Assembly (NCBI GenBank): GCA_963794755.1
Contig: CAWCEX010000010.1
Location: 617,621 to 681,620 of the forward strand
Source of the DNA: an uncultured Actinomycetota bacterium
GTDB taxonomy: Bacteria; Actinomycetota; Acidimicrobiia; Acidimicrobiales; RAAP-2
Direction of reading: 5' to 3'
DNA length: 64,000 nt
The notes below the pieces were generated by a model that was not told the origin of the DNA, ran no database searches, and worked only from the letters and a program-made list of their open reading frames with translations. Numbering within the stretch: position 1 is the first letter of the stretch; each line of letters begins with the position of its first letter. Shown here one piece after another: positions 33,548-51,705 of the stretch. A program made the position numbers and the translations under genes.

Positions 33548-33631
33548 TTCCGAGTGTGCTCTCGAATTTAACCTTGAGATTACTCCAGCATCGCCGGATT
33601 GCAGTAGAATGGACCCAACACGGAGGATCGC

Positions 33632-33859: not shown

Positions 33860-33948
33860 TAGACCACGCAACCGTCCTCCAAAGATACGACAAACCTCTT
33901 TCCGACCGCTACGCCGCGAGGCGCTCGCAGTTGTTGTACGGAGAGAAA

Positions 33949-34323
33949 ATGACGCCGTCTACTGTTGTCATCGCACAGAACGACCCTGTCTTCGCGCAGG
34001 GACTATCGAACGACCTTCACGCGCACTTCGCCCGGGTAGCCGTGGCCGAAAATGCAGTGGAGCTGCGCACATTGCTGCTGCGCCACGCAGCGCGAGTGGC
34101 AGTGCTCGATCTGGAAGCTGTGAGCGTGGAAGATGTACGCCAATTGGCTAGCACATTTAGCAACCTAATTATTGTGTGTACCCATCGCTCCCCGGACGAA
34201 CGAATGTGGATAGCAGCAATGAATGCTGGCGCAGTCGAATTTTGCCACCCGCAGGATATCCGCGCCATATTGCGCGCCTCGCGCGCGGCGGCGGTACCGA
34301 GCCACCTGGCGATTGCGGCTTAG
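33949..34323 (+). CDS. Hypothetical protein, degenerate receiver-like fold
   Basis: VVIAQND..RVAVLDLE..IIVCT..AMNAGAVEF pattern resembles REC but lacks canonical residues. Confidence 0.55.
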   Translation: MTPSTVVIAQNDPVFAQGLSNDLHAHFARVAVAENAVELRTLLLRHAARVAVLDLEAVSVEDVRQLASTFSNLIIVCTHRSPDERMWIAAMNAGAVEFCHPQDIRAILRASRAAAVPSHLAIAA

Positions 34324-34342
34324 GTGATCTGCCGCAGATTCC

Positions 34343-34369
34343 AAAGCCCTGCGTCATGTAGGGCTTTTG
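34343..34369 (+). terminator. Rho-independent terminator-like hairpin
   Basis: AAAGCCCTGC-GTCAT-GTAGGGCTTT followed by a T-rich tract. Confidence 0.5.
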
Positions 34370-34451
34370 CTGTTTGGAACACGTCGTTAGGCCAACGCTA
34401 AAACTCTGAGTAGCCTCACAACGCAATGCGCTGTTACACTTTTTAGCGTAC

Positions 34452-35333
34452 ATGCTGAAAGAAACTTTACTCCAAGGCCAGAAGACTGCCGATGCGGCGC
34501 TCGAACGTTTGTTGCCCGCCGCGACGCAGTACCCAAGCTCCATCCATCGCGCAATGCGCCACAGCGTGTTTGCCGGAGGCAAGCGGTTGCGTCCTATCCT
34601 GTGCATGGAATCGGCACGGATGGTAAGCGGAGCCATGCCCGAAGGCGTAGACGAATTGGGTGCCGCGATTGAGATGCTTCATACCTACTCGCTTGTGCAT
34701 GACGATCTGCCTGCGCTCGACAATGATGACCTGCGCCGTGGCCGGCCAACCTGCCACAAGGCGTTCGGGGAAGCCACCGCGATTCTGGCAGGGGATGCTC
34801 TGCAGACGCAGGCTTACGAAGTGATGGCCCGTCTGAAGTGTCCGGCAGAGGCGCGGGTGCGCATCATCGAAGAGTTGGCGCACGGTACAGGAACCATCGA
34901 CGGTATGATCGGCGGACAGGTGGTGGACCTGGAGTCCGAGCACGTGAAGCCCGATCTGCTCACCTTGGAGTACATTCACCGGGCCAAGACCGGGGCGTTG
35001 ATCGTGTCGTCCCTCCTTACGGGCTGCTACTATGTGGGCGCAAAATCCGCAGAGGTGCAGCGGGTACGCGAATTTGGGCGAGCAGCAGGACTGGCCTTCC
35101 AAATCGCCGACGACATTCTGGACGTCACCCAGACGAGCGAGCAACTGGGCAAAACTGCAGGCAAAGATCTGGCAGCCGAAAAGGTTACTTATCCTGCCCT
35201 GTACGGACTGGCGAAGGCCGAAGAAATGGCAGCTCAACTCATTCGCACGGCTTGCTCTTCGCTGGACAGCTTCGGTGAGCGAGCGAACACTTTAACCGAA
35301 ATCGCGCGCTACCTGGTCGAACGCAAGAAATAG
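34452..35333 (+). CDS. ispA: Farnesyl/geranyl diphosphate synthase
   Basis: GGKRLRP, FARM HDDLPALDNDDLRRG, KTG, SARM FQIADDILD. Confidence 0.93.
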   Translation: MLKETLLQGQKTADAALERLLPAATQYPSSIHRAMRHSVFAGGKRLRPILCMESARMVSGAMPEGVDELGAAIEMLHTYSLVHDDLPALDNDDLRRGRPTCHKAFGEATAILAGDALQTQAYEVMARLKCPAEARVRIIEELAHGTGTIDGMIGGQVVDLESEHVKPDLLTLEYIHRAKTGALIVSSLLTGCYYVGAKSAEVQRVREFGRAAGLAFQIADDILDVTQTSEQLGKTAGKDLAAEKVTYPALYGLAKAEEMAAQLIRTACSSLDSFGERANTLTEIARYLVERKK

Positions 35334-35460
35334 CCTGCACATTCACCGGCGGCACTCACGACTGCGGTGCTGTCATCTTTTGCACATGAAGAAACCCCGC
35401 GTCGAGTGGCGCGGGGCTGAACTGCTGCTGTGCAATCGAAAATCTGTCAGACGCCGGGTT

Positions 35461-35664
35461 TCAGGCCGCTTTCTCGTGGGTTCCCGATATTTTCCGAACC
35501 TTCTCTCGCTGGCGATTGAGTTCGTCTTGCGACTCAGGTCTCGTCATCAGAGGCCAACTGAGCTCGGGCCCCAAGGTGATCTGTTGGTCTTCTTTAGGCT
35601 GTTTTGTGAAGAACGAAGGATCTCTGTTCCAATCGAACTCGTGATTCTTTTTGTCGTCTGCCAT
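35461..35664 (-). CDS. Small hypothetical protein
   Basis: 67 aa, plausible composition, AGAGG upstream; no family recognised. Confidence 0.45.
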   Translation of the reverse strand: MADDKKNHEFDWNRDPSFFTKQPKEDQQITLGPELSWPLMTRPESQDELNRQREKVRKISGTHEKAA

Positions 35665-36006
35665 ATTTACCTCTGTTTGGGTTGGATGTTTCTGGTTGTC
35701 GGAATATCGAGTTTGATGCGTTACCTTCCCCTTGGAGCGTGCAAATTATGAGCTCTGCCGGAACCTTGCAGCATCTGAATTCCCGGCCCACGACTGACAC
35801 GTTGCCCTTCGGCTCTGACTGCTCCCATAACGGAACCACCGCGCGATTTTATCTGGGAAGATGACGCCACGTGAGTAGATGATGTGGTATTTTTGTGACC
35901 CTTCTGCAGCCGAAAACGCTTCAAAAAGGCGTTCCGCTTCTCTCGAGCGCAGAAGGAAATGTCGCGGCCATGGACAGTAGGTCCCGCCCACAATAGGAGA
36001 ACTGCC

Positions 36007-36399
36007 ATGCAGAAGCACCGAATCCTTGTGGTGGATGACGAGCGAGCCATCGCCTCTACACTCGCGGCGATATTCGAATCTCAAAGCTACGAGACCGCCA
36101 CGGCATACAGCGGAGAAGAAGCAGTTCAGGTGGCTGGTTCGTTTTGTCCCGATTTCATTGTCAGTGACGTGATGATGGGAGCGATGAGCGGCATCGAGGC
36201 TGCAATGGAAATATTGGACATGCTCCCGCGGTGCAAGGTGCTGTTCATTTCGGGTAACGCCACATACCGGGACTTGCTGGGAGATGCGCGGGCGAAGGGC
36301 TTCAATTTCGAAGTTCTCCAAAAGCCTGTGCTCCTGCCTGAACTGCTGGCAAGAATTTCCGAGGTTCTATTGCATCCAGCAAACCAAACCGCAGCATAA
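36007..36399 (+). CDS. Stand-alone response regulator receiver
   Basis: ILVVDDE, FIVSDVMM, FISG, LQKP. Confidence 0.85.
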   Translation: MQKHRILVVDDERAIASTLAAIFESQSYETATAYSGEEAVQVAGSFCPDFIVSDVMMGAMSGIEAAMEILDMLPRCKVLFISGNATYRDLLGDARAKGFNFEVLQKPVLLPELLARISEVLLHPANQTAA

Positions 36400-36472
36400 A
36401 AAGCCAATCTGGCGTTTGCGGCATCCAACGTTGGAAGAATGCTCGGCAGAAAGACGCACCCAGGAGGCTAAA

Positions 36473-36673
36473 ATGTTCCGGTTCGTCAGATCACTGTTCG
36501 GATGCGCTCACCACCATTGCACTTTTCCCATCACGTCCAAAAGTCCAGGCGCACCTTCATCACAAGGAAAACCGTCTGCAACCACGTACATCGTCTGCCT
36601 CGACTGCGGCAAGGAGTTCCCATACGATTGGCAGCGAATGAAGGTGGTTGAGTCGGCGAAACACGCAGCCTGA
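36473..36673 (+). CDS. Cys/His-rich microprotein, family A (GCxHxxC...CxDC)
   Basis: MFRFVRSLFGCAHHHCTFP..YIVCLDCGKEFPYDW; CAGGAGG RBS; paralogue at 57000-57191. Confidence 0.7.
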   Translation: MFRFVRSLFGCAHHHCTFPITSKSPGAPSSQGKPSATTYIVCLDCGKEFPYDWQRMKVVESAKHAA

Positions 36674-36917
36674 TTCTTCACTGGCAATTCATTCTGGCAA
36701 TTGTTGCCAAAAAACATGGCCCTCACATCACCACGCAAGTAACGTCCGGAACAACCTCCGAGCACGGCCTGCCTGATTTCTCCCCCGAGGCAAACATTTC
36801 CATGTTCCAGAGCACCCGAACGAGCATCCAATTCTGGATAAGCCAAAGGGGAACTATGGAAATGGAACACGATCATTCGCGTAAATTCGCCGTTCCTGCG
36901 GCGACGGCAGGCATATT

Positions 36918-37121
36918 ATGAAAAACATTGTCGAGGTGTTGAGGAAAAAAGAGATGGAGTTGCAGCAAATCCAAGCCGAAGTTGAAGCCTTGCGCGTTGC
37001 CTTGCGGCTTCTGTCGGAAGATGGTGAGAACCTCGCACGCCCGCTGGTGCCAACTGGATTACCGGAATCACGGGTAACGGAGATTAACACCGGCTCCAAC
37101 GCCACGCGTCAGTTTCCTTAA
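36918..37121 (+). CDS. Small coiled-coil hypothetical protein
   Basis: VLRKKEMELQQIQAEVEALRVALRLL heptad pattern. Confidence 0.6.
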   Translation: MKNIVEVLRKKEMELQQIQAEVEALRVALRLLSEDGENLARPLVPTGLPESRVTEINTGSNATRQFP

Positions 37122-37136
37122 GGAGATCGGGGTCGA

Positions 37137-38771
37137 ATGAAGCTGTCACACGCTGGTGTTGAACTGCGTCACGAAAAGCGCGATGCGCTCCTTGCGGGCC
37201 AACTGCTGGTTGTTGACCTGGTCTCGGAGAGCCCTGCACTCAAGACTCGCGGCATCGTTCTCAACATCAGCAAAGGTGGCATGGCGGTCCAAACATTCCG
37301 CCCGCTCGGCCAAGGAAAAATTACCGAGATCCAACTTTCTCTCCCCAGATTCTCCTCGTCTGCGGGCCGAGGGGTGGTGGAATGGGAAAAACAGGGCGGA
37401 GTTGCCGGCATTCGTTTTCTTCCCCCGCTGAAAACTTTGGCGGAATTGCGTCAGTGGGTCCAGCGCTATCCATCCAACCAGGAAACCGATTCTGCTCTGC
37501 CGCTGCTTGCCTGCCGGAGTACCCCCAGCGCAAGCGAGTTTGACACCACGCTGCACTTGTTCGCACACAGCGCCATGGCTCTTACCGGAGCCTCCGGTGC
37601 GGCGATTGCCCTTGGAAATATCGGCGGCATGGAATGTCGCGCGAGCATCGGAAGCGCGCCCGACCTGGGCGCACAGCTTCACCCAGACAGCGGAATCTCC
37701 GGCCACAGTCTGCGCACGGGCTCGGTGATCCTCTGCAACGATCTCCGGTCGGATTCGCGGGCGAACGCGGCTGCCGTCCTGCAGATGGATATACGATCAC
37801 TCGTCATTGTCCCCATTGCCCTGGCCGAGGAAGCCGAGAAAGTGGTGGGACTACTGGAGGTGTTCTCACCTAACGCGAACCACTTCGACGAGCGCCACAT
37901 TCAACAGTTGCAGCCATTGATGAATATTCTCGCCGAGGCGATCAAGGACGAGACCGACAACAACACTCCTGATTTGCTGGGCGCATCTGCGCCCGCTATC
38001 GCAGAGACCGTCGAACCGGAGGAACTCTCGCCCCATACACAGCCCGCTGATCGCCTCCATACGGTCGCTATGTCGGTCGCACTGCTCGTTTTAATAATTG
38101 CGGTAGCCTTATTTACCCCGCGGCTCCGAACCAGATCGTCAGGCAATGCCAATTCCCCGATCAGCGCGCCGCATAACGCCCAGCAGCCCGACGCCGTAGC
38201 AGCCACGAAGGCAATAATCGGGTTCAGTCCGTCGGTGATTAGCCAGAAGGTGGGAAAGACTTTCAACGTGGACGTGGTCGTGAAGGACGCGCGGAATCTC
38301 TCGTCTGTGCCGGTACAGATTCTCTATGATCCGCAGAAGTTGCAGTTCATCACCGTTACCAGTGGAGGCTTGCTTGACCGCGACGGCCAGACTGCCGCGC
38401 TGGTTCAACGCGTGAATTCATCGGCTGGACGCATCAACGTTTCCATCTCACGGCCATCTACTGCGCCCGGAATCTCCGGCGACGGAGTTGTTTTTACTCT
38501 TGCGTTTGCGGGCAAAGCTTCAGGACTCACTAGATTGCGCTTTGAGCAGACTGGCTTGCGCAACACATCGGCAAAGGCAATATCCGTCGATAGCTCTGAG
38601 GCGGTTGTCAACATCTCAAACGCAACAACTCCCGCCGCAAATACCCAGAATCACGGACCAACCGAAACGCGTTCCCTGCCCTCTGCGCCCACCGCGTTAT
38701 CTCGGAGCACCCCGGCTGATAGATCCGTACCACAATCCGGAGTGGACAGAAGCACCGCGATTCCGAAATAA
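37137..38771 (+). CDS. Membrane protein with PilZ-like, GAF, TM and cohesin-like domains
   Basis: N-terminal R..R/ NISKGG PilZ-like motifs, GAF (SGISGHSLRTG, VVGLLEVFS, F.ERH), one TM, and cohesin-like GKTFNVDVVV..YDPQKLQF. Confidence 0.65.
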   Translation: MKLSHAGVELRHEKRDALLAGQLLVVDLVSESPALKTRGIVLNISKGGMAVQTFRPLGQGKITEIQLSLPRFSSSAGRGVVEWEKQGGVAGIRFLPPLKTLAELRQWVQRYPSNQETDSALPLLACRSTPSASEFDTTLHLFAHSAMALTGASGAAIALGNIGGMECRASIGSAPDLGAQLHPDSGISGHSLRTGSVILCNDLRSDSRANAAAVLQMDIRSLVIVPIALAEEAEKVVGLLEVFSPNANHFDERHIQQLQPLMNILAEAIKDETDNNTPDLLGASAPAIAETVEPEELSPHTQPADRLHTVAMSVALLVLIIAVALFTPRLRTRSSGNANSPISAPHNAQQPDAVAATKAIIGFSPSVISQKVGKTFNVDVVVKDARNLSSVPVQILYDPQKLQFITVTSGGLLDRDGQTAALVQRVNSSAGRINVSISRPSTAPGISGDGVVFTLAFAGKASGLTRLRFEQTGLRNTSAKAISVDSSEAVVNISNATTPAANTQNHGPTETRSLPSAPTALSRSTPADRSVPQSGVDRSTAIPK

Positions 38772-38783
38772 ATCGCCGAAGGG

Positions 38784-39776
38784 CTACGGTTGCAGGAAAC
38801 TCGCCTGAAAAGCCCGCCGATTGCACTGCTCCACTTCCTTTTCCGTCAGCGCACCGATGTCTATAAGAAACTGCTGCTCCTTGTAAACGTTGGTATGGTA
38901 TAGCTCCGGGCCGTCGGTATTCACCGTAATGGAAACGCCATGAGCTACCAGCTTGCGGACGATGGACTTCAGCGCCCTAGCGTTGGGCACCATGCTGTTC
39001 TTGAGGTTAGAGGTCGGACAGAGTTCCAGCGTGATCTTTGCCGCGACGATTTCCTCCATGAGTTCTGGATCGCCTGCGGCGATAATCCCATGCCCGATGC
39101 GGTGCGGGACGATCTTTCTTACCACGTAGCGCAGCTCATCCGGGTCGCCGGTCTCGCCGCAGTGAACGGTGATCCCCAGCCCCGCTTCCTTGGCGCGCCA
39201 GAACAGTGGCGCGTGGCTCGCCATCGAAAATCCCCGCCGGTCCGGCCCCGCTAAATCGATCCCGACAATACCCTTGCCAACATACTTGATCGCTTTTTCT
39301 ACGATGATTTCGTTCTGTTCCCGGGTCAGCGTTCGATCCATCATCAGAATGAGTCCGGCCTTCACATTCGGATACTCAATCAAGGCCCGTTCCAGTCCCC
39401 AGCGAGCGGCGTTGATGATGTGGTCTAGGTCCCGTTCCCCGCGGCGATTGCGGAACATCGGGTTAAACCGCAATTCCTGCAACACCAGGTTGCACTTGCG
39501 GTATCCGCCGCCGATGACGCTAGCTACCGAATCCTGCATCGCTTCCGGCGATGACTGGATCAGCTCCGTCCAGTGATAGAAGCGCTCATGCATCTCTTTG
39601 AGGTTACGGTTGCGCTCCCGTTTCCCCATGGTGACCATGGCTTCGAATTGCCAGTAATCCTTGGTGGGAAGGCGTATCCCCTGGCGGTGTGCAATCGACC
39701 AGAGCACAGGCGGGTCGACCGCGCCTCCGAGGTGGGTATGTAATTCAGCGCGCGCAGTGGTGGTGCGGGGAGGCAT
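38784..39776 (-). CDS. Adenosine deaminase-family amidohydrolase
   Basis: ELHTHLGG, GIDLAG, VHCGE, RIGHG, LCPTSN, NTDGP. Confidence 0.85.
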   Translation of the reverse strand: MPPRTTTARAELHTHLGGAVDPPVLWSIAHRQGIRLPTKDYWQFEAMVTMGKRERNRNLKEMHERFYHWTELIQSSPEAMQDSVASVIGGGYRKCNLVLQELRFNPMFRNRRGERDLDHIINAARWGLERALIEYPNVKAGLILMMDRTLTREQNEIIVEKAIKYVGKGIVGIDLAGPDRRGFSMASHAPLFWRAKEAGLGITVHCGETGDPDELRYVVRKIVPHRIGHGIIAAGDPELMEEIVAAKITLELCPTSNLKNSMVPNARALKSIVRKLVAHGVSITVNTDGPELYHTNVYKEQQFLIDIGALTEKEVEQCNRRAFQASFLQP

Positions 39777-39815
39777 GGCTAGTAATAATACAGCGGTTTG
39801 CAAATAGTTTGTAGC

Positions 39816-40466
39816 TCATCGACTGTCGTTTTGGTGGTAACTCCCAAGCTCTAGTTCAGCCTGTGTTGAGCCAACCGTCTGACCATCCTTCAGCCCAACA
39901 AAATCAAAGTCGTTTGTGAAGCCCGGACGAAGCAAAGCCGATCGAATCAACATCCGTGTTTGCCGCCGGCGCAGTTGCCGTGTATTGTCCGATAGCAGCG
40001 CCCGGTACATGATAGAAAACCATCGTGCCTCCCGCACTCGCCACGCCCGCAAAATGAGTGTTCGGCGGAATCATGTCCACGGTGTAAATGGATGCTTGTG
40101 TTACCCCATCGACCGTGAGCGCACTCATGCTGGCGGCGCCAGTTCCGGAGTTGGAGAGACCCAGGGTAGAGCTGACGTTCTGCCCCCGCGCAGCTGATGT
40201 GGTGCTCGCGGACTTCAGCAGAACGACATTACTTTTAATAACGAAGGCGAGGGAGAGGCAGTGATTTGAACAGTGTTTGAGGGCTGGCTGCTAACCGTCT
40301 TGCCGGCCCCATCCGAAGAGTGGGGATTCGAGGTTGAGTCCTCGCTGTAGAGGAACTCGCCGCCGAGAACTCTACCCAAGGATGCCAGGATTTCACCCCT
40401 AATCCAACCCGAGAACACGAAACCGGGCGCAGTTGATAACCGCGCCCGGTCGAAATAAGGAAGCAC
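39816..40466 (-). pseudogene. Frameshifted remnant of a Thr/Ser-rich surface-protein domain (DUF11-like)
   Basis: Joined frames read PSNTVQIT..LLKSAS..GQNVSSTLGLSNSGTGAA..VDMIPPNTHF, resembling conserved-repeat domains; no intact ORF. Confidence 0.35.
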
Positions 40467-40899
40467 TCAAGCGCCGTTTGAGGGTACGGCAGCTAGGCTG
40501 AATGATGATGGAATGTCAGAGATTGTCGTTGCGTCGATAGATACCCTCCTTCACCCGCTTGTGGGTTTATGAAAAGTCCTCGCGCCTCGACAGTGTCCTC
40601 AGTGTAAGGTCTGGCGCAAGAGCATGCTGTAGGCATTAAACGCCGTTTGGAAATTGTTGCAAGCGGAAAATCACCTGAGATGTGACCTGCAGTAATCGGT
40701 ACTCTCCCATCAGTTCTAAGGGGCCGCTCTCAAGTTCGCACCAGCTCAGCGTGCCAGCACCTCGGAGAACCCAAACGCTTCGATTCCCAGAGATGGTGGG
40801 TTCAGGTGCTCACCGACCCAACCTCGGGCAACCCTGAGTTGCTGATCTGCTTCCGAGTAAATATCCGCTATTGCGCGAGCCAACCTGAGGAGTTCCTCG

Positions 40900-41247
40900 A
40901 TGTTTACAAGAGCGGTCGAATTGAGAGCCAAACCGGGAAAGACAAACAGGTTGTTCAGCGTCACAAGCGAAAGGGTGCTGCCTATTCTAAAAAAGCAGCA
41001 AGGGTTTCAGGGCGAGATCGTACTTCTCTCGAACACTGAACCCGACCGTATGCTGGTGCTAAGTTTCTGGAATAAGCGCGAGGACGCCGAGCGCCACCAC
41101 CGCGAGCAGTTCCCTCGGTTATTAGAGATGCTGCGCTCCTTGTACGAAGGTGAACCTTTGTTTGGTTCAGACTGCTCAATCCTACGTCTCGGCACATCCC
41201 TTCTGCCCCGCCCTGACCACAAAGCTCTCGGGAATACAGCAGAGTGA
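40900..41247 (+). CDS. ABM-like (dimeric alpha-beta barrel) protein; C-terminus possibly corrupted
   Basis: PILKKQQGFQGE..LVLSFW..REDAE pattern; sequence after ~41155 looks non-homologous. Confidence 0.65.
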   Translation: MFTRAVELRAKPGKTNRLFSVTSERVLPILKKQQGFQGEIVLLSNTEPDRMLVLSFWNKREDAERHHREQFPRLLEMLRSLYEGEPLFGSDCSILRLGTSLLPRPDHKALGNTAE

Positions 41248-41663
41248 AATTACTCCCGCATGAGCTTCTGTCCAAAGCCGAGGGGGCGTTGGCATTCGAT
41301 GGGAGGAAAACACTCCACCCCTTTCACGACCTGTGCCCATCTCCGGTTTCCACGAGACAAGACGGACGATCTGCCGTACCGAACGATTCGACCTTGCGCG
41401 GAGTGCCATGACCTAAGTCAGCCATTACCTACCAATAGAGGAACGAGGGCTGTCCGTAAGTGATGATGCTGGCAGGTCGGCTAAACACCGACTAATACCG
41501 TAGGTGTCACCTCACCCAGTCCGTGATCTTCCACTAACGGCTCCATCGTCCGGCATGCCGCAGTGAACTCATTCATCAAATGCGGCACTTATCGCCACCC
41601 CTCCCCCTCTCCGCTCCCCCACATCACCCCATCGCAACCGTGGCGTCTCGCCAGTGCGCTGGG

Positions 41664-42656
41664 GTGGCGACGACGAACTACGCAGGGTTAAGTCGAGGAC
41701 GGAAGGTGTATCCACAGGTAAGCTGTCACGTATCAAGCGCTGGTTCAGATTCGTAGTGAAGGTTACGATTAACGGAAAATCCACTTCGGCCTTCTTGATG
41801 TGAACTCAGCTGATGTACCAGCTGCGTTCGCGCGTAGTATGCAGTGCTATTCCCGCAAGGCCCTGCATCGTTGACTACAGCGGGGTGGCTACTAACGAGT
41901 CTTGTACCCCCGTCATGAGAGAGCTCAGACAGCGCTGACGTACTGAACCATTAGCTTACCCCAAAGTGACAGATGGTTCCGGTGCATGTAGATCCTTGTG
42001 GTTGGCAGGAGAATATTACTCGAACACGGCGGCGGGTTGCAGAGATAACAGTTAATGGCTGATTTACGTTCAAGAACTACACATTGATCCGCATCTTCTC
42101 AGTGCCTACGTTAATTTGACAAACACGGCGATAGAGCGGATTCAGCTGACATCTTTGAGTCACCGACTCCGACGGAGCTAGCCACATAAAGATGCGCTGA
42201 ATACGCTGCTATCGCCGTAGTTTGTCAAATTAAGTAGGCACTGAGAAGATGGGGATCAGATGTGTAGTTGTTGGACTAATCCGCCCGGAGCTGTTATCTC
42301 TGCAACCCGCCGCCGAGTTCGAGTAATATTCTCCGGCACCACAAGAAAACACATGCCCCGCAACCATTGTCATATGGGTTAATGGTCAGCGTAGTTCTAC
42401 TGAGCGCTCCGGCGGGGGTACAAGACTGGTATCTGTAGCCACCCCAGTGTAGTCAACGATCAGAGTGCCTTGCGGAGCCTGCACATTACGGAGAACGCGG
42501 CTGGTACATTCAGCTGAGATCAGTCAAGATAGGCCGATATGGATTTTCCATTAATCTAGTAACCTATCGCAGCGAATCTGAACCAGTGACGACTGAGTAC
42601 CTGTGGAAACATTCGGCGTGACTATAGACTCAACTGTAGTATTGAGTCGTCGCCAC
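41664..42656. repeat. Long imperfect inverted repeat (~490-bp arms, 31-nt loop, centre ~42171)
   Basis: Exact complementary blocks: 42027-42051/42291-42315 (25 bp), 42008-42025/42317-42334, 42092-42109/42234-42251, 41740-41753/42573-42586, 41664-41674/42646-42656. Confidence 0.92.
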
Positions 42657-45062
42657 CGCGACAGGCGTAGGACGAACCCACGCCGCTGTGCTCGTCAGAT
42701 TCTGAGTGCTGCCGTCACTGTAAGTACCGGTAGCCGTGAATTGTTGGTTATTGCCAAGCACGATTGAGGGTTTGCTGGGTGTGGCGGAAATGGACACTAA
42801 CACTGGTGAAGGTTTGTTTATCACTGCCGTCGTCGACCCGCTTATTGCCCCTAGCCCACCGGTTATCGTTGCCGAGCCTTGCCCGGAACCGGTGGCATAA
42901 CCGGAACCATTAATATTGACAATCGCCGTGTTGGATGACGACCACATGACAGAGCTTGTCAAGTTCGCCGTGCAGCCTCCAGTGTAGGTGCCAGTTGCGG
43001 TGAATTGCAGATTGCCGCCGATTGTAATCGCAGGACCGGACGGCGTAACCGCTATGGACAACAGTTGGGTAATGCACCCAACGATCAGAGTGGTGTTTGC
43101 AGAAACCGAACCCTTTGCCGCTGTGATCGTCGTTAAACCCATGCCGGAGCTGGTAGCGAGACCCTGCGAGCCCGTGCTGTTGCTGATAACGGCTACAGTC
43201 GCGGACGAACTGGTCCAGGTAACATTCGTGGTGATGCGTTGCGTGCTCTGGTCGGAGTAGGTGCCCGTCGCGGTGAATTGCTGTGAGGTCCCCAGTGCGA
43301 TCGCCGGATTTTGCGGAGTGATGCTGATAGTGACCAACGCCGGTGGGGTGATCGTCAGAGAAGCCGTGCCCGACACGCTGCCGGAGGTCGCGCTAATAGT
43401 TGTCGAGCCTACTGCAACGCTGGTGGAAAGGCCCACGGTCCCAGTGGCATTGCTTATGGTGGACACGGTACCGGCCGAAGAACCCCAGTAGACTGAGGAC
43501 GTCAGGTCGTGCGTGGTGCCGTCGGCGTAATTACCTGTCGACGTAAACGCTTGCGTTGTTCCCAACGGAATGAGAGCAGTTGCAGGCTTGATCTTGATCG
43601 AAACCAATGCCGCCGCTGTGACCGTCAGTGTCGTCGTCCCACTGATATTCCCGACCTTAGCGATAATGGTCGTACTGCCGGTCGCGGCGCTGTGCGCCAA
43701 GCCTGTGGAATCCACGGTTGCAACTGTCGATACGCTTGAACTCCAACTTGCAGTACTCGTCAGATTCCGGGTAGTCGAGTCCGTGTACATTCCTGTTGCC
43801 GTGAACTGCTGGCTCGTCCCGACAGATGCTATGGATGGATTAGCTGGAGTAATGGCGATCGAGTCCAACACTGCTGTTGTGATGGTCAAGATGGTCGAGC
43901 CGGAGACTGATCCTGAAGTCGCGGTGATGTTCGTCGTTCCCGTGGCAAGACTGCTTGCGAGCCCACTCGTTCCGGTGCTGTTGCTTATTGTGGCGACCAT
44001 CGCGGCCGATGAACTCCATTGCACCGTGGTAGTGAGATTTTGCGTGGTGTGATCGGTGAACGTACCCGTGGCTGCAAACTGCTGATCTGTACCGAGCGGA
44101 GTGGATGGGATGGCTGGCGTGATCGCAATGGACACTAGCTGCGCCGGTGAGACGGTGAGGGTTGTCGATTCCGTAACTGTGCCGGACATTGCAGATATCG
44201 TTGTGACGCCGACAGTGGCACTAGTTACGACCCCCGCCGCGGAAATCAAAGCGACCGCGCCAGCGGACGAACCCCAAGTAACAGCAGAGGTTAGGTTTTG
44301 AGTGCTGCCGTCGCTGAATGTCCCCGTCGCCATGAGCTTCTGGGTCGTACCGAGGGCAATCAGGCTATTCGCCGGAGTAATCGCAATCGACTGGAGCACA
44401 GCAGGCAGTACTGTTAACGACACAGAGTTCGCGGTGATCGAACCTGTCGAAGCAGTGATGCTTGTCCTTCCGTCTCCCCCGCTTTGGGCCAGGCCCACAG
44501 CATTGATTGTGGCTACGGACGGAGCGGAGGAAGTCCAGGTTACAAGGCTAGTAACGTTCTGGGCGGAACCGCCGGTAAAGGTACCGGTTGCCTCAAACTG
44601 TTGTGTTGTTCCGAGCTGGATTGATGCGCTCGCCGGTGTAACCGACAGGCCCTCCAGCGCCGCGGGCGTGACCGTCAGCGTCGTTTGTCCCGATACTCCC
44701 CCTGCCGAAGCGGTGATCGTCGTGATGCCAACCTCACTCGCAGTGCCCATACTCATACCTGATGGGTCACTCGTTACTATGCCGGGAGTCGACGAGGTCC
44801 AAATTGCAGTTGTGGTTAGGTTCCGTGTGCTGCCATCAGAGTATGTTCCGGTTGCCGCAAACTGCCGCGTCGTATGCAATGGCATCACGGCATTGGACGG
44901 GGTGATAGCAATTGAAACCAAAGTAGGTGCAGGCCTGTGACGCATAGCGAAGTCGAGACTGGCCGGAGCTGCGGAGACCTGCGCTGTGGAAACTTGCGCT
45001 GTGGCGCAAATCAAAAACAGAGCCGAGGCAAATAGCGACAACGTGATCCGATAGCGAAACAT
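42630..45062 (-). CDS. Secreted bacterial Ig-like (Big_2) repeat protein, 3' end truncated
   Basis: Signal peptide, then 8 complete ~90-aa repeats (L.SIAITP..QQF.ATGT..DG...W.SS..VATI..GL..T.I.A..G..T.LTVT) and a ninth broken at the inverted repeat. Confidence 0.88.
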   Translation of the reverse strand: MFRYRITLSLFASALFLICATAQVSTAQVSAAPASLDFAMRHRPAPTLVSIAITPSNAVMPLHTTRQFAATGTYSDGSTRNLTTTAIWTSSTPGIVTSDPSGMSMGTASEVGITTITASAGGVSGQTTLTVTPAALEGLSVTPASASIQLGTTQQFEATGTFTGGSAQNVTSLVTWTSSAPSVATINAVGLAQSGGDGRTSITASTGSITANSVSLTVLPAVLQSIAITPANSLIALGTTQKLMATGTFSDGSTQNLTSAVTWGSSAGAVALISAAGVVTSATVGVTTISAMSGTVTESTTLTVSPAQLVSIAITPAIPSTPLGTDQQFAATGTFTDHTTQNLTTTVQWSSSAAMVATISNSTGTSGLASSLATGTTNITATSGSVSGSTILTITTAVLDSIAITPANPSIASVGTSQQFTATGMYTDSTTRNLTSTASWSSSVSTVATVDSTGLAHSAATGSTTIIAKVGNISGTTTLTVTAAALVSIKIKPATALIPLGTTQAFTSTGNYADGTTHDLTSSVYWGSSAGTVSTISNATGTVGLSTSVAVGSTTISATSGSVSGTASLTITPPALVTISITPQNPAIALGTSQQFTATGTYSDQSTQRITTNVTWTSSSATVAVISNSTGSQGLATSSGMGLTTITAAKGSVSANTTLIVGCITQLLSIAVTPSGPAITIGGNLQFTATGTYTGGCTANLTSSVMWSSSNTAIVNINGSGYATGSGQGSATITGGLGAISGSTTAVINKPSPVLVSISATPSKPSIVLGNNQQFTATGTYSDGSTQNLTSTAAWVRPTPVAVATTQYYS

Positions 45063-45828
45063 AACTGCACCTCTTCTAACAGGAATAATTCTCCAACCTA
45101 CATATGGCAGCGTACTGAGCTATATTGCACGGTGCCGACAGATATGTTCGCCGTGCCTGGCAATTGCGACCAAAGTAGGACAGATTGCGACGGCCACTAG
45201 CCAGTTTGGTGTCTGGTGTTCCAGATGGGGCCCTTGGGGATGAGATAACAGAGGCAGCAGAGGTAGTTCGTAGTTGCGCTTAACCGGGAGACAGCCCGTT
45301 GAATATTTTGTACTAAACTAAGAAACACTGCAGTTCGGGTTTAAGGGTTATTACATTTGTAACTCCGTGGCTTGCCGAGGTCTGAGCTGCGCTGACCATT
45401 CGTTGAAACTTCTCGGACACACCTCGGGCGGGGGAGTTTAGGTGGGAATCAGATGGGGATACTTCAGTATGGAAAGTTCAACTACCTTGAGGAGCAGCCC
45501 TTTGAAACGGCTGCCGAGTGTGCGGAAAAGCGCCCGGTGTTTCTGCTGTTGTTTCAGTAGATGCTGTCTTGCCCGCAGAATGTGAGCAACCTTGACCATT
45601 TGTAACATTTTTCTGGCTTATTCGCTCAGCCCCATCCTCGCTGACCATTACGGACACCCAGTTGAATACTGGACTGGGTGTTGCTCTTCGCCGCGATCAT
45701 TGCGGGTGAAGTTGCAATTGGGTTCGTAATAAATACTCGGCTAGAGACCATTTCACCGCCGATTGAAAAGAAAGTCCGCCATGCCGGCTGTCTTTTCGGC
45801 AAACTCGACGAAACCGAGGATACCATGC

Positions 45829-46086
45829 TCATACATCGTCTGGCCTCCACAGCCTGAAACGCGGGTCATCGGTATACCTCTCGTCATACTTCTGGTTTGC
45901 TGTCTTCCAATCTGCCATCTGCATTGGCCTTTCGTCTTGCAGTCTGAACAGCTTTTCCAATTTCTTTATCGCAGCGATCTTCCGCTTTCCGGCTCTGCAA
46001 TCTAAAACCAGCAGCGATCTTTTATCAGGCAGTCTAAAGAGCTTTTCCAACCACTTTATTTCGGCAATGATCCTTTCGGCGTTCAT
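45829..46086 (-). CDS. Small hypothetical protein with internal duplication
   Basis: IAEIKWLEKLFRLPDKR / IAAIKKLEKLFRLQDER. Confidence 0.55.
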   Translation of the reverse strand: MNAERIIAEIKWLEKLFRLPDKRSLLVLDCRAGKRKIAAIKKLEKLFRLQDERPMQMADWKTANQKYDERYTDDPRFRLWRPDDV

Positions 46087-46277
46087 ATTGTTGCCTCACT
46101 TCGTTACCGCGCTCCGTGATAGAACCTGCGAAGACGGAAGTCTGAGCACACTAGACAGCTTCGGCCTTTTAGGATGCTGCCTTGTACTCTCTTCTGATAC
46201 AAACCTTTCTGGGCGGAAAAGTTGCAGGTTTCATTGGCACAGCTCTTGCTGGTAGGCCATCCAACCAAACAAAGCAA

Positions 46278-46305
46278 AGCCCCCCAGCCCGTCCGGCTGA
46301 GGGGC
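46278..46305 (-). terminator. Terminator-like hairpin
   Basis: AGCCCCCAGCC-CGTCC-GGCTGAGGGGCT with a T-rich tail on the minus strand. Confidence 0.45.
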
Positions 46306-46675
46306 TAAACACTTCTACCGGCGACTATTTAACGCGGCCGTATTCACGCCCCGCCTTACGCCAAATCTGTAGCTATACGATTTTGCATACCCCACGCCAA
46401 CGCGCCCCGAAATACACCGCGGGCGGATAAACATAGCCGGGACCGCGAGGTGAGTTACTTGGAGTACGATGGGTTTTTGAGAGAAGTGGGGCGGCCCTCC
46501 GCGTCCTTGTCCTGCATCTTTGGCCATGGCTTTGAGCAACCTTGACCATTCCAGCACTTGCTTCCTGCTACGCCCTTTTCCTTTGAGATACCATTGCAAC
46601 GCTACAGTGCGAAGCGGCAGAGCTGTTATGCTCCGCCGCTTCAGATTCGCGCTTCGCCAAATTCAGCAGCAAGGG

Positions 46676-47239
46676 TTAGTGGCGTCCACCACCACCATGT
46701 GAGCCACCACCGCCACTATGACCGCCACTGGCATGCCCCCCACCATGAGAGCCACCACCAGCGTGCGAACCGCCACCGCCACCGCGAGAACCGCCACCGC
46801 TACGCGCAGCTACGGTGTGGGTGCCGCCACCGTGATACCCACCGCCACGACTAGAGCGTAGTCCCGATGAGCCTCGTCCACCGCCGTATCCTCGGCCGCC
46901 GCCGTATCCGCCTCTGGCGACATACCTTCCTCCACCACCACCGCCGAAGCGATGACCACCCCAGCCGTGGCTATATCCCCAATTCCCCCACGGGCCCACG
47001 CCTAGGAAGATGCCGTTATAGAAATAGCCCGGCCCATAGAAACCCATGGGTGCGCAGCCATACGGTGAGTAGTCATAGTAGCCATAGGTACATACTGGCG
47101 GATTTACGCTGATAATAACTTGCGCGTTGGCCTTTGGCACTACGACCAGGGATGCGAATAAAGCTGTTGTACCGATCAGAAGCAGACTGTTCATTGCAAA
47201 CTTGTGAGCCCAAAAAGCTGCACGCTTGACTTGCCACAT
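46676..47239 (-). CDS. Secreted Tyr/Gly-rich protein with a Gly/His/Arg low-complexity tail
   Basis: GAGG RBS, signal peptide ending ANA-Q, PPVCTYGYYDYSPYGCAP, GG-rich tail. Confidence 0.75.
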   Translation of the reverse strand: MWQVKRAAFWAHKFAMNSLLLIGTTALFASLVVVPKANAQVIISVNPPVCTYGYYDYSPYGCAPMGFYGPGYFYNGIFLGVGPWGNWGYSHGWGGHRFGGGGGGRYVARGGYGGGRGYGGGRGSSGLRSSRGGGYHGGGTHTVAARSGGGSRGGGGGSHAGGGSHGGGHASGGHSGGGGSHGGGGRH

Positions 47240-47340
47240 TTTGTTTCCTCTTTATTGTCCGAAGGGCTTTTGATGTAGCGTTCCAGAATCACACGCTCGA
47301 TAACAGCCACCAATCTTCGGAACCGACTTTCTTCTTTAGG

Positions 47341-47466
47341 CTACGGCCTGATGACGACGGTAGTGTGATGGTGATGATGATGGCGATGGTGTCTTGCGGC
47401 GAATGCTGGCATTGCCGCGCTCAGCAGCAGAACACAACTCAGTAAAGCGATCATTGACTTTTTCAA
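47341..47466 (-). CDS. Secreted His-rich micropeptide (41 aa; below the ORF-track cutoff)
   Basis: GGAGA RBS, TTG start, MKKSMIALLSCVLLLSAAMPAFA-ARHHRHHHHHTTVVIRP*. Confidence 0.7.
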   Translation of the reverse strand: MKKSMIALLSCVLLLSAAMPAFAARHHRHHHHHHTTVVIRP

Positions 47467-47734
47467 TGTATTTCTCCGGCGAACGTCCTTAGGAGCATTC
47501 AGCCTCTAGCAGCTTCAGTATTCCAACACTCAACGTACTACGCTGAGCAATCCGATACAGTCGCGGCAAGTTATCGAAATAAATGTTCACAGGCAGGAGA
47601 ATTCCGCAGCGGCGCCTGATTAACATTTAGTCTGAGAGCAGAACAATTCAAGACATCCAAGATCGCGGATCGACGGGGCGAGTATTCGCATGCTGCCATG
47701 CGGAGCACTTAAATTGGTGATAGGCTCCCCTGTC

Positions 47735-47998
47735 ATGAAGCCCGTGGAGCGGGAATTCGTTACTCTGCCGGAACTGCGTCGGGGCGACGCTTGCGTTATG
47801 ACTGTGGAGCGAGGTGCCTATTTGCGCGTGAAGGTCGTGGGCGTCAAGCCAATCAAAAACATCCTGCTCTACACCCCCACGATTCTCAGGACAGTATCGA
47901 CAACTGAATTCGTTGCCGCGGGCGAGGATGTGTACGCATGCGCTTTCCCGCCTAGCAAACTATTCGAACGGGTCTTTCTTGAGGGCGAAGATAATTAG
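47735..47998 (+). CDS. Small hypothetical protein
   Basis: Beta-rich 87-aa ORF; no family recognised. Confidence 0.4.
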   Translation: MKPVEREFVTLPELRRGDACVMTVERGAYLRVKVVGVKPIKNILLYTPTILRTVSTTEFVAAGEDVYACAFPPSKLFERVFLEGEDN

Positions 47999-48099
47999 CT
48001 CCGTAGGCAGCAGGATTACCAGTGCTCCGTGTACAACGGGCTCACAGCAGAAGGCGATCATACCCCTCACGTTGGAACTCACCCGCAATCAGTCAGGCT

Positions 48100-48297
48100 T
48101 CACGCTGCACTCTGTTTGTGACCCTTGCTTCTGACTAGTTCCTTCAGGCGGGAGAACTTATCAGGAGGTAGGGTAGCATGATCGTCGAATCCCAGTTCCG
48201 CGACGAACCTTTGCTCCTCCTCCGTCATTTCGTGCATAAGAATATTCCGCGCTTGCTTGTAGAGGTCATCTACTTCGCTCTGTCGGTCAGATGCCAT
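48100..48297 (-). CDS. Small hypothetical protein
   Basis: GGGAGG RBS; 65 aa, charged and helical. Confidence 0.55.
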   Translation of the reverse strand: MASDRQSEVDDLYKQARNILMHEMTEEEQRFVAELGFDDHATLPPDKFSRLKELVRSKGHKQSAA

Positions 48298-48417
48298 TTG
48301 ACCCTCCCCACTCCCACATTGTTACCATCGTAGTCTTTTGCGGAATACATCGGGCGTTTATTCGCAGGAGAGTTCGCTACAGCTCTCCACGCTTCCACGG
48401 CGTACGGCGGTTTCCAG

Positions 48418-49308
48418 CTAGCAAGATAGGAGATGCTCAAGGTCTGTCAAAAAGGAAGTCGGCGACAAACCCTTCACAGATTGCTTGTCCACACGTTGCA
48501 GGGCCTCTTGGGGAATATCAACATAGGAGGACAACAATAGAATCTTTATGTCGGGGTTGAGGCGTTTCAATTCCGCAGCTACCTGCCCCCCATCCATGCC
48601 CGGCATCGCATAGTCAAGCACAACTGCATCAATCGGATTGGCTTTGAATAATTTAAGGCCTTCGGGGCCGCTCAACGCAGTGAGCACCTCGTAGCCCTTA
48701 TTCCGCAGAATTGCTTTGCGAACCACTAGACCGTTTGGTTCGTCATCAATGCACAAGACCGTGTTATCTCCACTCACCAGAACATTCACCCAGTCGGCTT
48801 CGATGCGGATGTTCCGGTAAAGAAGGTAGGCGAGGAAGCGTTCAGCAAACTTCGGTTTCTGCTGGAGGAGTGTTGCCATTGCTTGTTTGGTCACCCGAAT
48901 GACCATGCTCTGCTGAACCGCGCTGGCGGAGGACAAGCGAAGCGGTTGCCCAGCCAAGCAGCCCTCGCCGAAGAAGCTGGCGTCCGGCATGGTGGCCACT
49001 ACAACTTCTTTGCCACTTTCGGAGACGACCGTGAGCTTCACCTTGCCACTCTGAACATAGAACACCGCGTCTGCCGTGTCTCCCTGTAGGAAAATGAATT
49101 CATCGGTTTGGTATTCCCTGCGAGTGGTTCCGCTCGAAGGATCGGCCAGTATCACGCTCGGATCAAATGTGTCATTGGATTCATCAAGCTCAAGGTTCGC
49201 TGAGCCAGGCACGGCTTCATGAGTCGCGGACAGTTGCAAATCGGCGCTCTTCCTAGTGGCAGTCTCGCGCTGCTTCTTTTGGGCGATGACACTGCGTTTA
49301 CTCTTCAT
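48418..49308 (-). CDS. cNMP-binding (Crp N-terminal) domain fused to a C-terminal receiver domain
   Basis: IFLQGDTADAVFYVQSGKVKL..FFGEGCLAGQPLR, then VLCIDDE..VVLDYAMP..LLLSS; no HTH. Confidence 0.8.
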   Translation of the reverse strand: MKSKRSVIAQKKQRETATRKSADLQLSATHEAVPGSANLELDESNDTFDPSVILADPSSGTTRREYQTDEFIFLQGDTADAVFYVQSGKVKLTVVSESGKEVVVATMPDASFFGEGCLAGQPLRLSSASAVQQSMVIRVTKQAMATLLQQKPKFAERFLAYLLYRNIRIEADWVNVLVSGDNTVLCIDDEPNGLVVRKAILRNKGYEVLTALSGPEGLKLFKANPIDAVVLDYAMPGMDGGQVAAELKRLNPDIKILLLSSYVDIPQEALQRVDKQSVKGLSPTSFLTDLEHLLSC

Positions 49309-49455
49309 GCGGCCTCCGGACTCGTTAGAGCCTATGCGCTGACCTCACACGAAAGATGGTCAATTTTGCTCAGATCTCAGAGGCGTTGTTGCTTGCGAAT
49401 TCCTGTCACCCGGCACTTGTCCAACACAGCCGCCCCTACAGCGCAACCGCAGCGG

Positions 49456-50228
49456 CTAATCGTGGAGCACAACGCTAACCAGTGAGCTGTGGACGTTCAC
49501 CCGCCGCCGTTGTACTCGATGAAGCCCATCTCCCGGAAACGATTCATAAAGAAGCTGACTCGCGAACGGGTCGTGCCGATCATTTCGGCAAGGGTCTCCT
49601 GACTCACTCTCGCGATGAGCGGTATCGGTTTGGACTCCTGCCCGAAGTTGGCCATCAGCAGTAGGAGCCGGGCCAGACGTTTCTCGCTGGAATTGAACAG
49701 GTGATCTACAAGGTCGGCTTCCATGCGGATGTTGATGTTTCGCGAAAGAAGATAGGCTAGAAATTGTTCGGCAAACACCGGCTCCCGATGGAGCAATTCG
49801 ACCATCGCACGCTTTTCGACGCGAACAATCGTGCTCTTCTGGTCGGCGCTAGCCGTGGCCATACGGATCGGTTGTCCCGCCAGGCAGCCCTCGCCGAAGA
49901 AACTGGCTTGCGACAAAATGGCAATCACTGCTTCTTTGCCGCTCTTCGACACCACTGTAAGCTTCACATTGCCGCTCTCGACGTAGAAGACCGCATCCGC
50001 AGCATCCCCTTGATTAAAGACACACTCCTCGGCCAGGTAAACCCGAGCAGTCTTTCCAACGGAGAGTTTCGTTAGCAGAACGTGGGGGTCGAATAAACCA
50101 TCCCTCTCCGGCAGTACCTCTACGGGGCTCAGCCTCTCTTCGGTAGTGGATGCTGGGGGCAAAGACGCGCTCAGCCCGCAGTGAGCCTTGATCTTTTTTA
50201 TCGGGGCAGCGGTGCTCTTGGAGGCCAT
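49456..50228 (-). CDS. Crp/Fnr-family regulator (frameshift near 49497)
   Basis: FFGEGCLAGQP, LFNSSEKRLARLLL, SQETLAEMIGTTRSRVS; tail NVHSSLVSVVLHD* in the shifted frame. Confidence 0.88.
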
Positions 50229-50503
50229 CGGAATATCCCACTCGGACAGTGTATCTAGGGGCTTTTACCGAGCGGACATAGTATAGCCCAACAGCAACTT
50301 GGAACCATGAATGTTCACTTTGGCGCTCCCGAAGTGAAACGGCGGTATATATGGGCCACAGGGATGCATATTCATTTTCCCTGCTCGGGGGAACAGACAG
50401 TGCAGCGATGATCAATTTTGCTCAGATTTAGGGAAAATCATGAGAGTACAAGGGGTGTAGCCTCTAAGCCGCATTGCAAGGCTTACGAGCACGAGGAAAG
50501 ATC

Positions 50504-50719
50504 ATGAAGACGAGCACGGAAGACAAGATGAAGGGTAGCTTCCACGAACTCAAGGGAACAATCAAGGAGCAAGTCGGGAAGGCTACCAACGACCGCAAGT
50601 TGAGAGTCGAAGGGAAAGTTGAAAAGAAGGCCGGAAAGGTTCAGCAGCAGATCGGCCACGCCAAAGATGCTGTGGCAAAGCTAAAAGGCAAGCTTGCGGA
50701 GATCAAGAAAGCTGGATAG
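50504..50719 (+). CDS. CsbD-family general stress protein
   Basis: EDKMKGSFHELKGTIKEQVGKATND..EGKVEKKAGKVQ. Confidence 0.85.
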   Translation: MKTSTEDKMKGSFHELKGTIKEQVGKATNDRKLRVEGKVEKKAGKVQQQIGHAKDAVAKLKGKLAEIKKAG

Positions 50720-50814
50720 GTATTCTTAACGGCTATGGACAAAACGACAACGGGCGGATTTCTTATGGCGGCTCCATTTTTTCGAAGCTACCCGCGTTTT
50801 GAGGAGAGACTCTA

Positions 50815-51486
50815 TTGACCACGGCAAGAGGGGGGCTGGCATACGGGACAGAAGCCGAAGCCATCGAAGGTGCCAAGCAAGGCGATGGCGAGTGCTTGGA
50901 GTTTCTTTATAGCCGCCACAAAAGGCGCGTTTACTCGCTGTGTCTGCGGATGGTTGGCAATATCGATGAAGCGGAGGATGTTACGCAGGAAGTCTTTCTC
51001 CAGCTCTATCGCAAGATTGTAAGCTTTCGTGGCGATTCTTCGTTCGCGACTTGGCTGCATCGCGTTACCGTCAACATCATCCTCATGCGGTTTCGCAAGA
51101 AGGGTCTCATTGAGGTATCCCTTGAAGAGACTCTGGGCTCCACAGAAGATGGTGATCAGAAGAGGGAATTTGGTTCTGAGGATAGGCATCTTGCTGGCTC
51201 CATTGACCGTGTAATTCTGGAGCGTGTCATTGAACGCCTTCCGCCCGGCTATCGCATTACTTTTATTCTGCAGACTCGAGGATGGCAGGCGAGATGCCAA
51301 TTGCTGGGATGCTCCATTAATACCAGTAGATCGCAACTTCACAAGGCGCGGTTGAAATTGCGTGAAGTGCTAGACGTCGCTCGCGCCGAATATAACCGGC
51401 GCAAGTCAACACGTAAAATGAAGACTCAGGACCGGTTGACTATGGCAAGGGAACGTGGCGCAAGAGCTGCGGCCACCGCCGCCTGA
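50815..51486 (+). CDS. ECF sigma-70 factor (RpoE-like)
   Basis: EAEDVTQEVF, FRGDSSFATWLHRVTVN, LPPGYR, SQLHKAR; region 4 locally scrambled. Confidence 0.85.
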   Translation: MTTARGGLAYGTEAEAIEGAKQGDGECLEFLYSRHKRRVYSLCLRMVGNIDEAEDVTQEVFLQLYRKIVSFRGDSSFATWLHRVTVNIILMRFRKKGLIEVSLEETLGSTEDGDQKREFGSEDRHLAGSIDRVILERVIERLPPGYRITFILQTRGWQARCQLLGCSINTSRSQLHKARLKLREVLDVARAEYNRRKSTRKMKTQDRLTMARERGARAAATAA

Positions 51487-51705
51487 TTAATTATCCTCTT
51501 TTTCAAGGTAGGCAACACGTCGTCCCGTTGCTGATCATCCTTCACCTGCGCCAAGGCATAAATCGTTTCTTTTGGCCCGACATTCGCATTGTTCCGCTGG
51601 TGTCGAGACATCCTTGCTTTGTTCCTGCTGCAATGCCACAATCCTGCTGAGCGTTCGGAACAAGTCGAACTCTTCCAAGCGTTGTGGAAAGAGCGCATCA
51701 CATCA

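Follow-up and report, generated by a model that had tools for sequence, protein, structure and literature searches.

A one-kilobase palindrome in an Acidimicrobiales genome is probably the merged consensus of a gene end present in two orientations

Invertons, a class of invertible DNA segments, are defined by flanking inverted repeats that a site-specific recombinase recognises (Chanin et al., bioRxiv 10.1101/2023.03.11.532203). Inverted structures are also a matter of sequencing technology: Nanopore base-calling accuracy is reported to be lower on inverted duplicates (Spealman et al. 2020, PMC7229812). Here, we describe an apparent palindrome of about 1 kb that bears on both subjects. It lies in a stretch of 64,000 nucleotides (hereafter the window; C10:617621-681620) on an 842-kb contig of the 2.85-Mb, 11-contig genome of an uncultured Acidimicrobiales bacterium, where it stands between a small gene with an ABM domain and the end of a gene for a protein built of immunoglobulin-like (Ig-like) repeats. 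We conclude that the palindrome is probably a consensus artefact, in which a segment of ~970 nt present in both orientations has been merged into a single sequence. The sequence is real as written, and the feature is not real as DNA.

By gapped local alignment, a left arm at 41639-42156 pairs with the reverse complement of a right arm at 42188-42682 (both given on the forward strand) across a loop of 31 nt at 42157-42187, and the same pairing blocks were recovered by an ungapped repeat search. The arms agree at 423 positions and mismatch at 48, and 50 gap openings add 71 gap bases; identity is 78% of columns, or 90% when gaps are ignored. Folded as DNA, the whole stretch is predicted to form a single long hairpin (dG -379 kcal/mol). 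The imperfect hairpin of about 1 kb with its 31-nt loop, which an earlier note had described from the bare letters, is therefore present in the sequence. That note also proposed to compare substitutions with indels between the arms, and indels dominate. One indel per substitution is not typical of diverging bacterial DNA, so the suspicion of a technical origin was sound. We also considered the target of a diversity-generating retroelement and rejected it, since such targets need adenine-specific substitutions without indels. In a self-BLAST of the whole genome (E<=1e-20), no other self-overlapping, hairpin-type inverted match was found, and the sole other inverted match within one contig has its arms 18 kb apart. 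Likewise, we found no further large palindrome of the hairpin type, either in this genome or in 1.29 Mb of related loci.

What the locus looks like without the palindrome can be read from three other assemblies of it (L006, L010, and L011), which have different ENA analysis accessions and were reached via exact-protein look-ups. In L006 and L011, the ABM gene, the spacer, and the Ig-like gene have the order and spacing of the window, and L010 is syntenic only to the right of window 40980, a position within the ABM gene. Against L006, window positions 36000-48000 form a single alignment of 96.25% identity; L010 matches 40980-52000 at 97.2%, and L011 matches 32967-41629 at 98.6% and 41625-48774 at 93.7%. 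No self-inverted repeat exists at the locus in any of them. Instead, each has the complete C-terminal domain of the Ig-like protein, collinear with that of a homologue, P0053. In L011, the domain occupies one frame (303 aa, 82% identical to P0053, within a 974-aa open reading frame [ORF]), and in L006 and L010, it carries one frameshift each. The domain proper, of ~235 aa, lies in L011 at 9415-10125 on the reverse strand, equivalent to window 41775-42480. The frameshift is shared by L006 and L010 (L006 ~9321-9328, near P0053 residue 1108-1110) and absent from L011; it may be either a real lesion of the strain or a systematic homopolymer error. The corresponding segments of L006 and L010, 1187 nt long, are identical to each other, and they can therefore serve as a clean wild-type reference.

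Compared with this reference, the disturbance in the window is sharply bounded. Between 41500 and 42750, the window differs from L006 by 86 mismatches and 99 gaps, while on the left (39750-41500) there are no differences besides two single gaps, and on the right (42750-45000) none besides one mismatch. The left flank at 41520-41637 agrees with the wild type of both L006 and L010 except for a mismatch at 41619, and the right flank at 42678-42779 is exactly wild type. Between them lies a scrambled interval (41638-42677) of 1040 nt in place of 967 wild-type nt. Some arm differences had looked synonymous, as if they had evolved; given the confinement of mismatches and gaps to this interval, they are not evolutionary.

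The wild-type loci also bear on the explanation that the earlier note had preferred, namely that a Nanopore fold-back read, consisting of a template and its complement, entered the contig and joined two loci that are not neighbours. The palindromic shape and the indel-rich spectrum are what such a read would leave, and the genome is very probably a long-read metagenome-assembled genome (MAG). However, because the same gene order exists elsewhere, the ABM gene truly neighbours the Ig-like gene and the contig contains no chimeric join here: the flanks stand at the same spacing in L006 and L011, L010 agrees from the ABM gene rightwards, and the scrambled interval sits in the place of its wild-type counterpart. 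A fold-back would further predict a reverse-complemented copy of the Big_2 repeat region beyond the left arm, yet the similarity stops at 41639 with no reverse-complement continuation, and the wild-type spacer is found at 41520-41637. In addition, the left arm contains forward blocks of the true 3' end of the gene and the right arm contains their reverse complement, which is impossible by folding one half. We therefore regard a fold-back junction as very improbable. The broader suspicion of the note, that the structure is a product of long-read assembly, is upheld over a biological hairpin.

Aligned to the wild-type segment in forward orientation, the interval scores 987, with 78% of columns identical; aligned to the reverse complement of the same segment, it still scores 762, with 73% identical. 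The wild-type segment has no such affinity to itself, since its score against its own reverse complement is -136, no better than shuffles (-173 to -198). Exact 11-mers give the same picture: of the 1032 in the interval, the forward wild type shares 140 and its reverse complement 91, as compared with 2 of 962 when the wild type is searched in its own reverse complement. Both sets are collinear, with the reverse blocks descending from wild-type position 1072 to 222, and about half of the interval positions lie outside any exact block, forward or reverse. Across bins of 40 nt, forward identity is anticorrelated with reverse identity, and the two alternate roughly as forward, reverse, forward, reverse, forward, reverse. 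When positions are mirrored across the centre, 120 pairs combine a forward with a reverse position and 38 combine two of the same type. Where a wild-type piece survives on the left, its reverse complement thus stands at the mirrored place on the right. Both junctions of the interval are intermediate between the wild-type junction and the one predicted for an inverted segment.

Seen this way, each arm draws on two parts of the gene. The left arm takes the place of the final ~150 wild-type codons of the Ig-like gene and of ~115 nt past its stop, and the arm indeed contains forward blocks of the wild-type 3' end (for example, 41978-42001, which is segment 455-478); it also contains reverse blocks of the upstream half (for example, 41882-41912 and 42027-42053). 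The right arm consists, in its inner part, mostly of forward wild type that corresponds to the start of the C-terminal domain and, in its outer part, mostly of the reverse-complemented 3' end of the gene; forward blocks on this side run from 42169 to 42484, and the reverse blocks include 42496-42511 and 42571-42586. The loop is essentially the natural midpoint of the wild-type segment, mostly forward with one extra T. A loop of 31 nt was correctly noted; of the two mini-hairpins described in it, GAGTC-acc-GACTC requires the extra T. The claim that both arms are broken copies of one coding sequence with a common endpoint was half right: frame-broken pieces of the domain and symmetric stops are there, and the arms are nevertheless not copies of one source, as each mixes two segment halves in opposite orientations.

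This mixture also decides against a real inverted duplication that replaced the 3' end of the gene, with the arm differences as Nanopore base-calling errors. On one hand, the differences are limited to the arms and unlike those of another assembly, as would be expected if the reported loss of accuracy on inverted duplicates applied here. On the other hand, a duplication predicts that one half of the segment is absent, and we find exact collinear blocks of both halves, each both ways, such as the forward 3' end at 41978-42001 and its reverse complement at 42571-42586. The interval is also nearly of wild-type length (1040 vs 967 nt), and the rest of the domain is interleaved in it, not missing. 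We hold such a duplication to be highly unlikely, and the template-switch duplication named in the earlier note fails in the same manner, in that it predicts one gene part per arm. A related candidate, a real palindrome carrying independent errors in several assemblies, was dropped: the palindrome is not reproduced in L006 and L010, with their near-identical flanks, or in the close relative L011, and the window matches the wild type both ways.

We propose that the segment concerned consists of the last ~850 nt of the Ig-like gene, i.e., most of its C-terminal domain, and ~115 nt downstream, and that both orientations would have had about the same weight in the long reads from which the genome was assembled and polished. 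A consensus step that merged the orientations piecewise could then yield the 1040-nt mosaic of forward, reverse, and neither. When a sequence and its reverse complement are mixed in balance, reverse complementation leaves the mix as it is, and so a strand-symmetric consensus of it should be near-palindromic. From this follow the hairpin, the symmetric ends, the centre at the midpoint of the segment, and the indel-rich "errors" confined to the arms. The reads of inverted orientation would presumably stem from a real inversion in some cells or from a co-occurring strain, and the polisher would have pushed them through the segment, possibly through lenient breaking-off of alignments or through bubble-wise consensus. 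Relatives with the C-terminal domain are MAGs (mostly Acidobacteriota) of the long-read Microflora Danica project, which assembled R10.4.1 Nanopore reads with metaFlye 2.9.2 and polished them in a single Medaka round (PMC12313526), and the contigs syntenic with the window bear Flye-style names. It is thus very probable that the window belongs to a long-read MAG as well. One more specific idea, that the length of about 1 kb reflects the overlap of Medaka chunks, was set aside as a coincidence, given that, by our own arithmetic, the contig position does not fall on multiples of the chunk step.

In a crude simulation of the proposed merging, noisy reads were aligned with MAFFT and the consensus was called by majority in each column, ties being broken at random. 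Blends that resemble both orientations and have self-complementarity above background arose only at about 50:50; at 60:40 or beyond, the clean majority sequence was returned. The forward:reverse ratio of 11-mers in the interval is about 60:40.

Several points weigh against our interpretation or limit it. The simulated blends reached a self-complementarity of only 97-302, as compared with 943 observed, and we therefore argue that the real algorithm must pick between the two sequences by content. Reads of the inverted orientation are inferred, not seen, and the pipeline of the window's own genome is deduced from that of its relatives. All three other assemblies have the segment in forward orientation only. 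Four shallow soil short-read runs from one study, mapped on 38000-46000, do not cover the interval; the only short-read cover of 41605-42805 was a 33-nt scrap of another organism, and this gap is no evidence by the rule of the mapping tool; the mosaic is in any case <88% like either orientation. A search of sequencing runs with the mosaic alone returned no runs. Finally, the wild-type boundaries carry no inverted repeat beyond chance, and the window has no recombinase gene.

Some of these points would fit a purely technical origin, in which one or a few aberrant reads, chimeric by an internal inversion, formed an inverted backbone that was partly corrected by wild-type reads, without any cell being inverted. 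The boundaries without repeats, the distance to any recombinase, the forward-only state of the three other assemblies, and the uniqueness of the palindrome in the genome and in 1.29 Mb of related loci are all in line with such an accident. Yet traces of both junctions of an inverted form are present, and a random event with two precise breakpoints that keeps flanks and length is improbable. Moreover, a minority orientation was outvoted in our simulation, and the ~60:40 ratio of forward to reverse 11-mers implies comparable weights. Overall, we consider this origin rather unlikely. Two precise breakpoints, intact flanks, and comparable weights favour a real structural polymorphism, and the likely cause of the consensus artefact is an inversion polymorphism of ~1 kb carried by the sampled population, which polishing then garbled.

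Is this inversion a biological switch? At the wild-type boundaries, the best local score for inverted repeats was 15, against a shuffle mean of 16.5, and the longest exact one found within +/-30 nt was 6 nt, a length that 291 of 500 shuffles equalled or exceeded. No gene for a resolvase/invertase or a tyrosine recombinase was found in the 64-kb window. The only match to the Resolvase family lies on contig C6, and matches to Phage_integrase lie at C10:111 kb, at C10:299 kb, on C6, and on C5; as the window spans C10:617.6-681.6 kb, every such gene is either >300 kb distant or on a different contig. A recombinase encoded elsewhere might still act on the segment in trans. Nor does the switch recur across strains, in that the three other assemblies hold the forward state only, at the level of their consensus. 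A programmed inverton is thus unsupported. If the inverted state does occur in cells, reading its sequence suggests that the protein would stop about 16 codons past the breakpoint and lose its tip domain. A real, reversible inversion of ~1 kb, present in roughly 50% of the soil population and switching off the lectin-like tip of the Big_2 protein without recognisable repeats or a local invertase, is in our view unlikely; if true, it would be an atypical phase-variation switch.

The hairpin also invites readings at the level of replication or RNA, namely a hairpin replicon end or a long hairpin that produces double-stranded RNA (dsRNA) from the Ig-like gene. Only the predicted fold and a sub-threshold match to the Rfam family MIR839 speak for these. 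Against them, conserved genes stand on either side of the structure within a contig of 842 kb, a hairpin is absent from the wild-type locus, and the sequence itself is a consensus mosaic with both gene halves in each arm, where these readings predict one gene part per arm. We find them scarcely credible. The MIR839 match (a plant microRNA precursor; 42019-42324) scored 100.8 bits with E=2e-20, below the gathering score of 200, and was rejected as a real RNA because it is sub-threshold and driven by hairpin shape alone; a snoRNA-like Rfam match was rejected as chance. The case illustrates that a long hairpin can attract a covariance-model match that looks strong and means nothing.

The gene whose end is scrambled encodes, as read in the window, a protein of 810 aa (42630-45062, reverse strand) with eight Big_2 repeats (Pfam E=1.6e-64). 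The hairpin was said to swallow the end of this gene, and this is correct: the C-terminus is lost in the scrambled interval. The last ~17 residues and the stop codon of the 810-aa ORF are products of the scrambled consensus, and the wild-type gene extends roughly 270 codons further, to a total of about 1,080 codons, with a beta-sandwich tip domain last. Two homologues, P0053 (1266 aa, 79% identity to the Ig-like protein) and the similar P0021, are both longer than the window ORF and end in a non-Ig domain of about 240 aa. A tblastn search with P0053 recovered recognisable pieces of this domain in both arms, broken by frameshifts and stops, with a weak continuation of the domain through the left arm. 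In the window, coding appears to turn back after the motif AYVNLTN, so that the last ~146 codons are seemingly absent; tblastn did not find them elsewhere in the genome because they are interleaved in the mosaic.

The domain itself matches no Pfam family. Its structural model is all-beta with moderate confidence (pLDDT 65), and the best fold matches are uncharacterised beta-sandwich proteins in AlphaFold clusters (TM 0.56-0.66), including one that bears the name mannose-sensitive agglutinin; a search of the PDB gave TM below 0.3 and was uninformative. The domain is rare. Scans of metagenomes and species genomes returned nearly all matches only to the Big_2 part, and the full domain was found in one scanned species genome only (L093); inverted loci were not specifically looked at in these scans, and none were recognised. 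P0021 (L005:2612-6061) is organised differently, in that the whole module of Big_2 repeats and C-terminal beta-sandwich domain occurs twice in tandem in one 1149-aa ORF. The neighbourhoods of the P0053 and P0021 homologues are not syntenic with the window and are uninformative on the junction. Finally, a DNA search of 30 relatives with 39800-45100 gave no match outside the window's own genome.

On the other side of the interval, the ABM-domain gene (40900-41247, forward strand) had been described as unrecognisable after ~41155. We find its ORF intact at 115 aa with a Pfam ABM match; an identical protein is encoded in L006, and each of the four proteins in its 90% cluster has a length of 115 aa. 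Between this gene and the scrambled interval lies a spacer of 390 nt (41248-41637), parts of which had been taken for faint traces of the hairpin out to ~41520 and for C-rich noise. The spacer is real and conserved: contigs from short reads of the soil study match 41200-41350 and 41379-41604 with zero differences, a single gap was counted against L006 at 41250-41500, and the long L011 alignment crosses it at 98.6% identity. It has no Rfam or Pfam match. Left of the ABM gene are an adenosine deaminase and a PilZ-GAF-cohesin protein. The latter is encoded at window 37137-38771 (forward strand) by one 544-aa ORF with an unusual architecture of PilZ, GAF, and cohesin domains, and this ORF is split in two in L006, probably by an assembly frameshift. 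In three further loci (L007, L008, and L012), an ABM protein of the same 90% cluster is encoded at 8001-8348, beside a catalase-peroxidase and a Fur-family gene. Given these differing neighbourhoods, the ABM gene is at a synteny breakpoint between lineages.

Other differences among the assemblies concern the wider locus. Two clusters separate the window from L006, one at 38750-39750 (48 substitutions and 1 gap) and one at 45250-46250 (47 substitutions and 12 gaps, nine of them in 45500-45750); these reflect strain-level divergence and place the window and L006 in different populations. L011 has about 550 nt of extra DNA at the left edge of the scrambled segment (L011:8727-9345, at window ~41629), flanked by diverged direct repeats of ~70 nt and containing ORFs of 96 aa and 61 aa without a Pfam match. 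In L010, an IS21-type element with an IstB-like ATPase and a transposase (L010:12203-14837) interrupts the ABM gene at the equivalent of window 40980. Together with the frameshift shared by L006 and L010, these insertions suggest that the region downstream of the Ig-like gene varies structurally between strains.

For annotation, the consequences are direct. Neither the palindrome nor the 810-aa "truncated" Ig-like protein with its odd tail should be annotated or read as biology. The two flanks belong together, so this part of the contig is no chimera. At the same time, the artefact suggests that the ~1 kb 3' end of an adhesin-like gene was present in two orientations in the sample, a polymorphism that a single consensus would hide.

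How does this locus compare with known systems? It resembles the "partial intergenic" or premature-stop intragenic invertons of the PhaseFinder and PhaVa type in that a segment at a gene end apparently occurs in both orientations and its inversion would truncate the protein. Unlike those invertons, it lacks both an inverted repeat above chance and a recombinase gene within the 64 kb of the window; the reverse state was found in none of the three other samples, and no alternative frame would be fused after inversion. With shufflons and the cassette switches of tail fibres and adhesins (Rci, Gin/Cin), it shares a C-terminal, probably ligand-binding, module on a surface protein with a repeat stalk. 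In contrast to these switches, there is a single cassette, no C-terminus in opposite orientation, no sfx- or gix-like repeats, and no nearby invertase; a shufflon reading was rejected on the difference spectrum and the wild-type loci. The long, indel-rich imperfect palindrome recalls Nanopore fold-back reads and the base-calling errors on inverted duplicates (Spealman et al. 2020), but here the arms do not duplicate one sequence, the flanks truly belong side by side, and the length is that of the wild type.

The closest likeness is to structural heterogeneity collapsed in long-read metagenome assemblies. As in such cases, the disturbance is limited to the variable segment between wild-type flanks, the errors are rich in indels and unlike those in another assembly of the same strain, and metaFlye with Medaka was used in the project of the relatives. 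To our knowledge, the pseudo-palindrome signature of a collapsed inversion has not been described, although the literature was not searched for it. By the symmetry argument above, a palindromic, indel-rich consensus of wild-type length is of diagnostic use for long-read MAGs, as it marks candidate inversions. What sets this locus apart from other collapsed heterogeneity is the near-symmetric pseudo-palindrome, which arises since the competing sequences are reverse complements of each other, and noisy pseudo-palindromes in polished assemblies could accordingly be a reference-free signature of balanced inversion heterogeneity.

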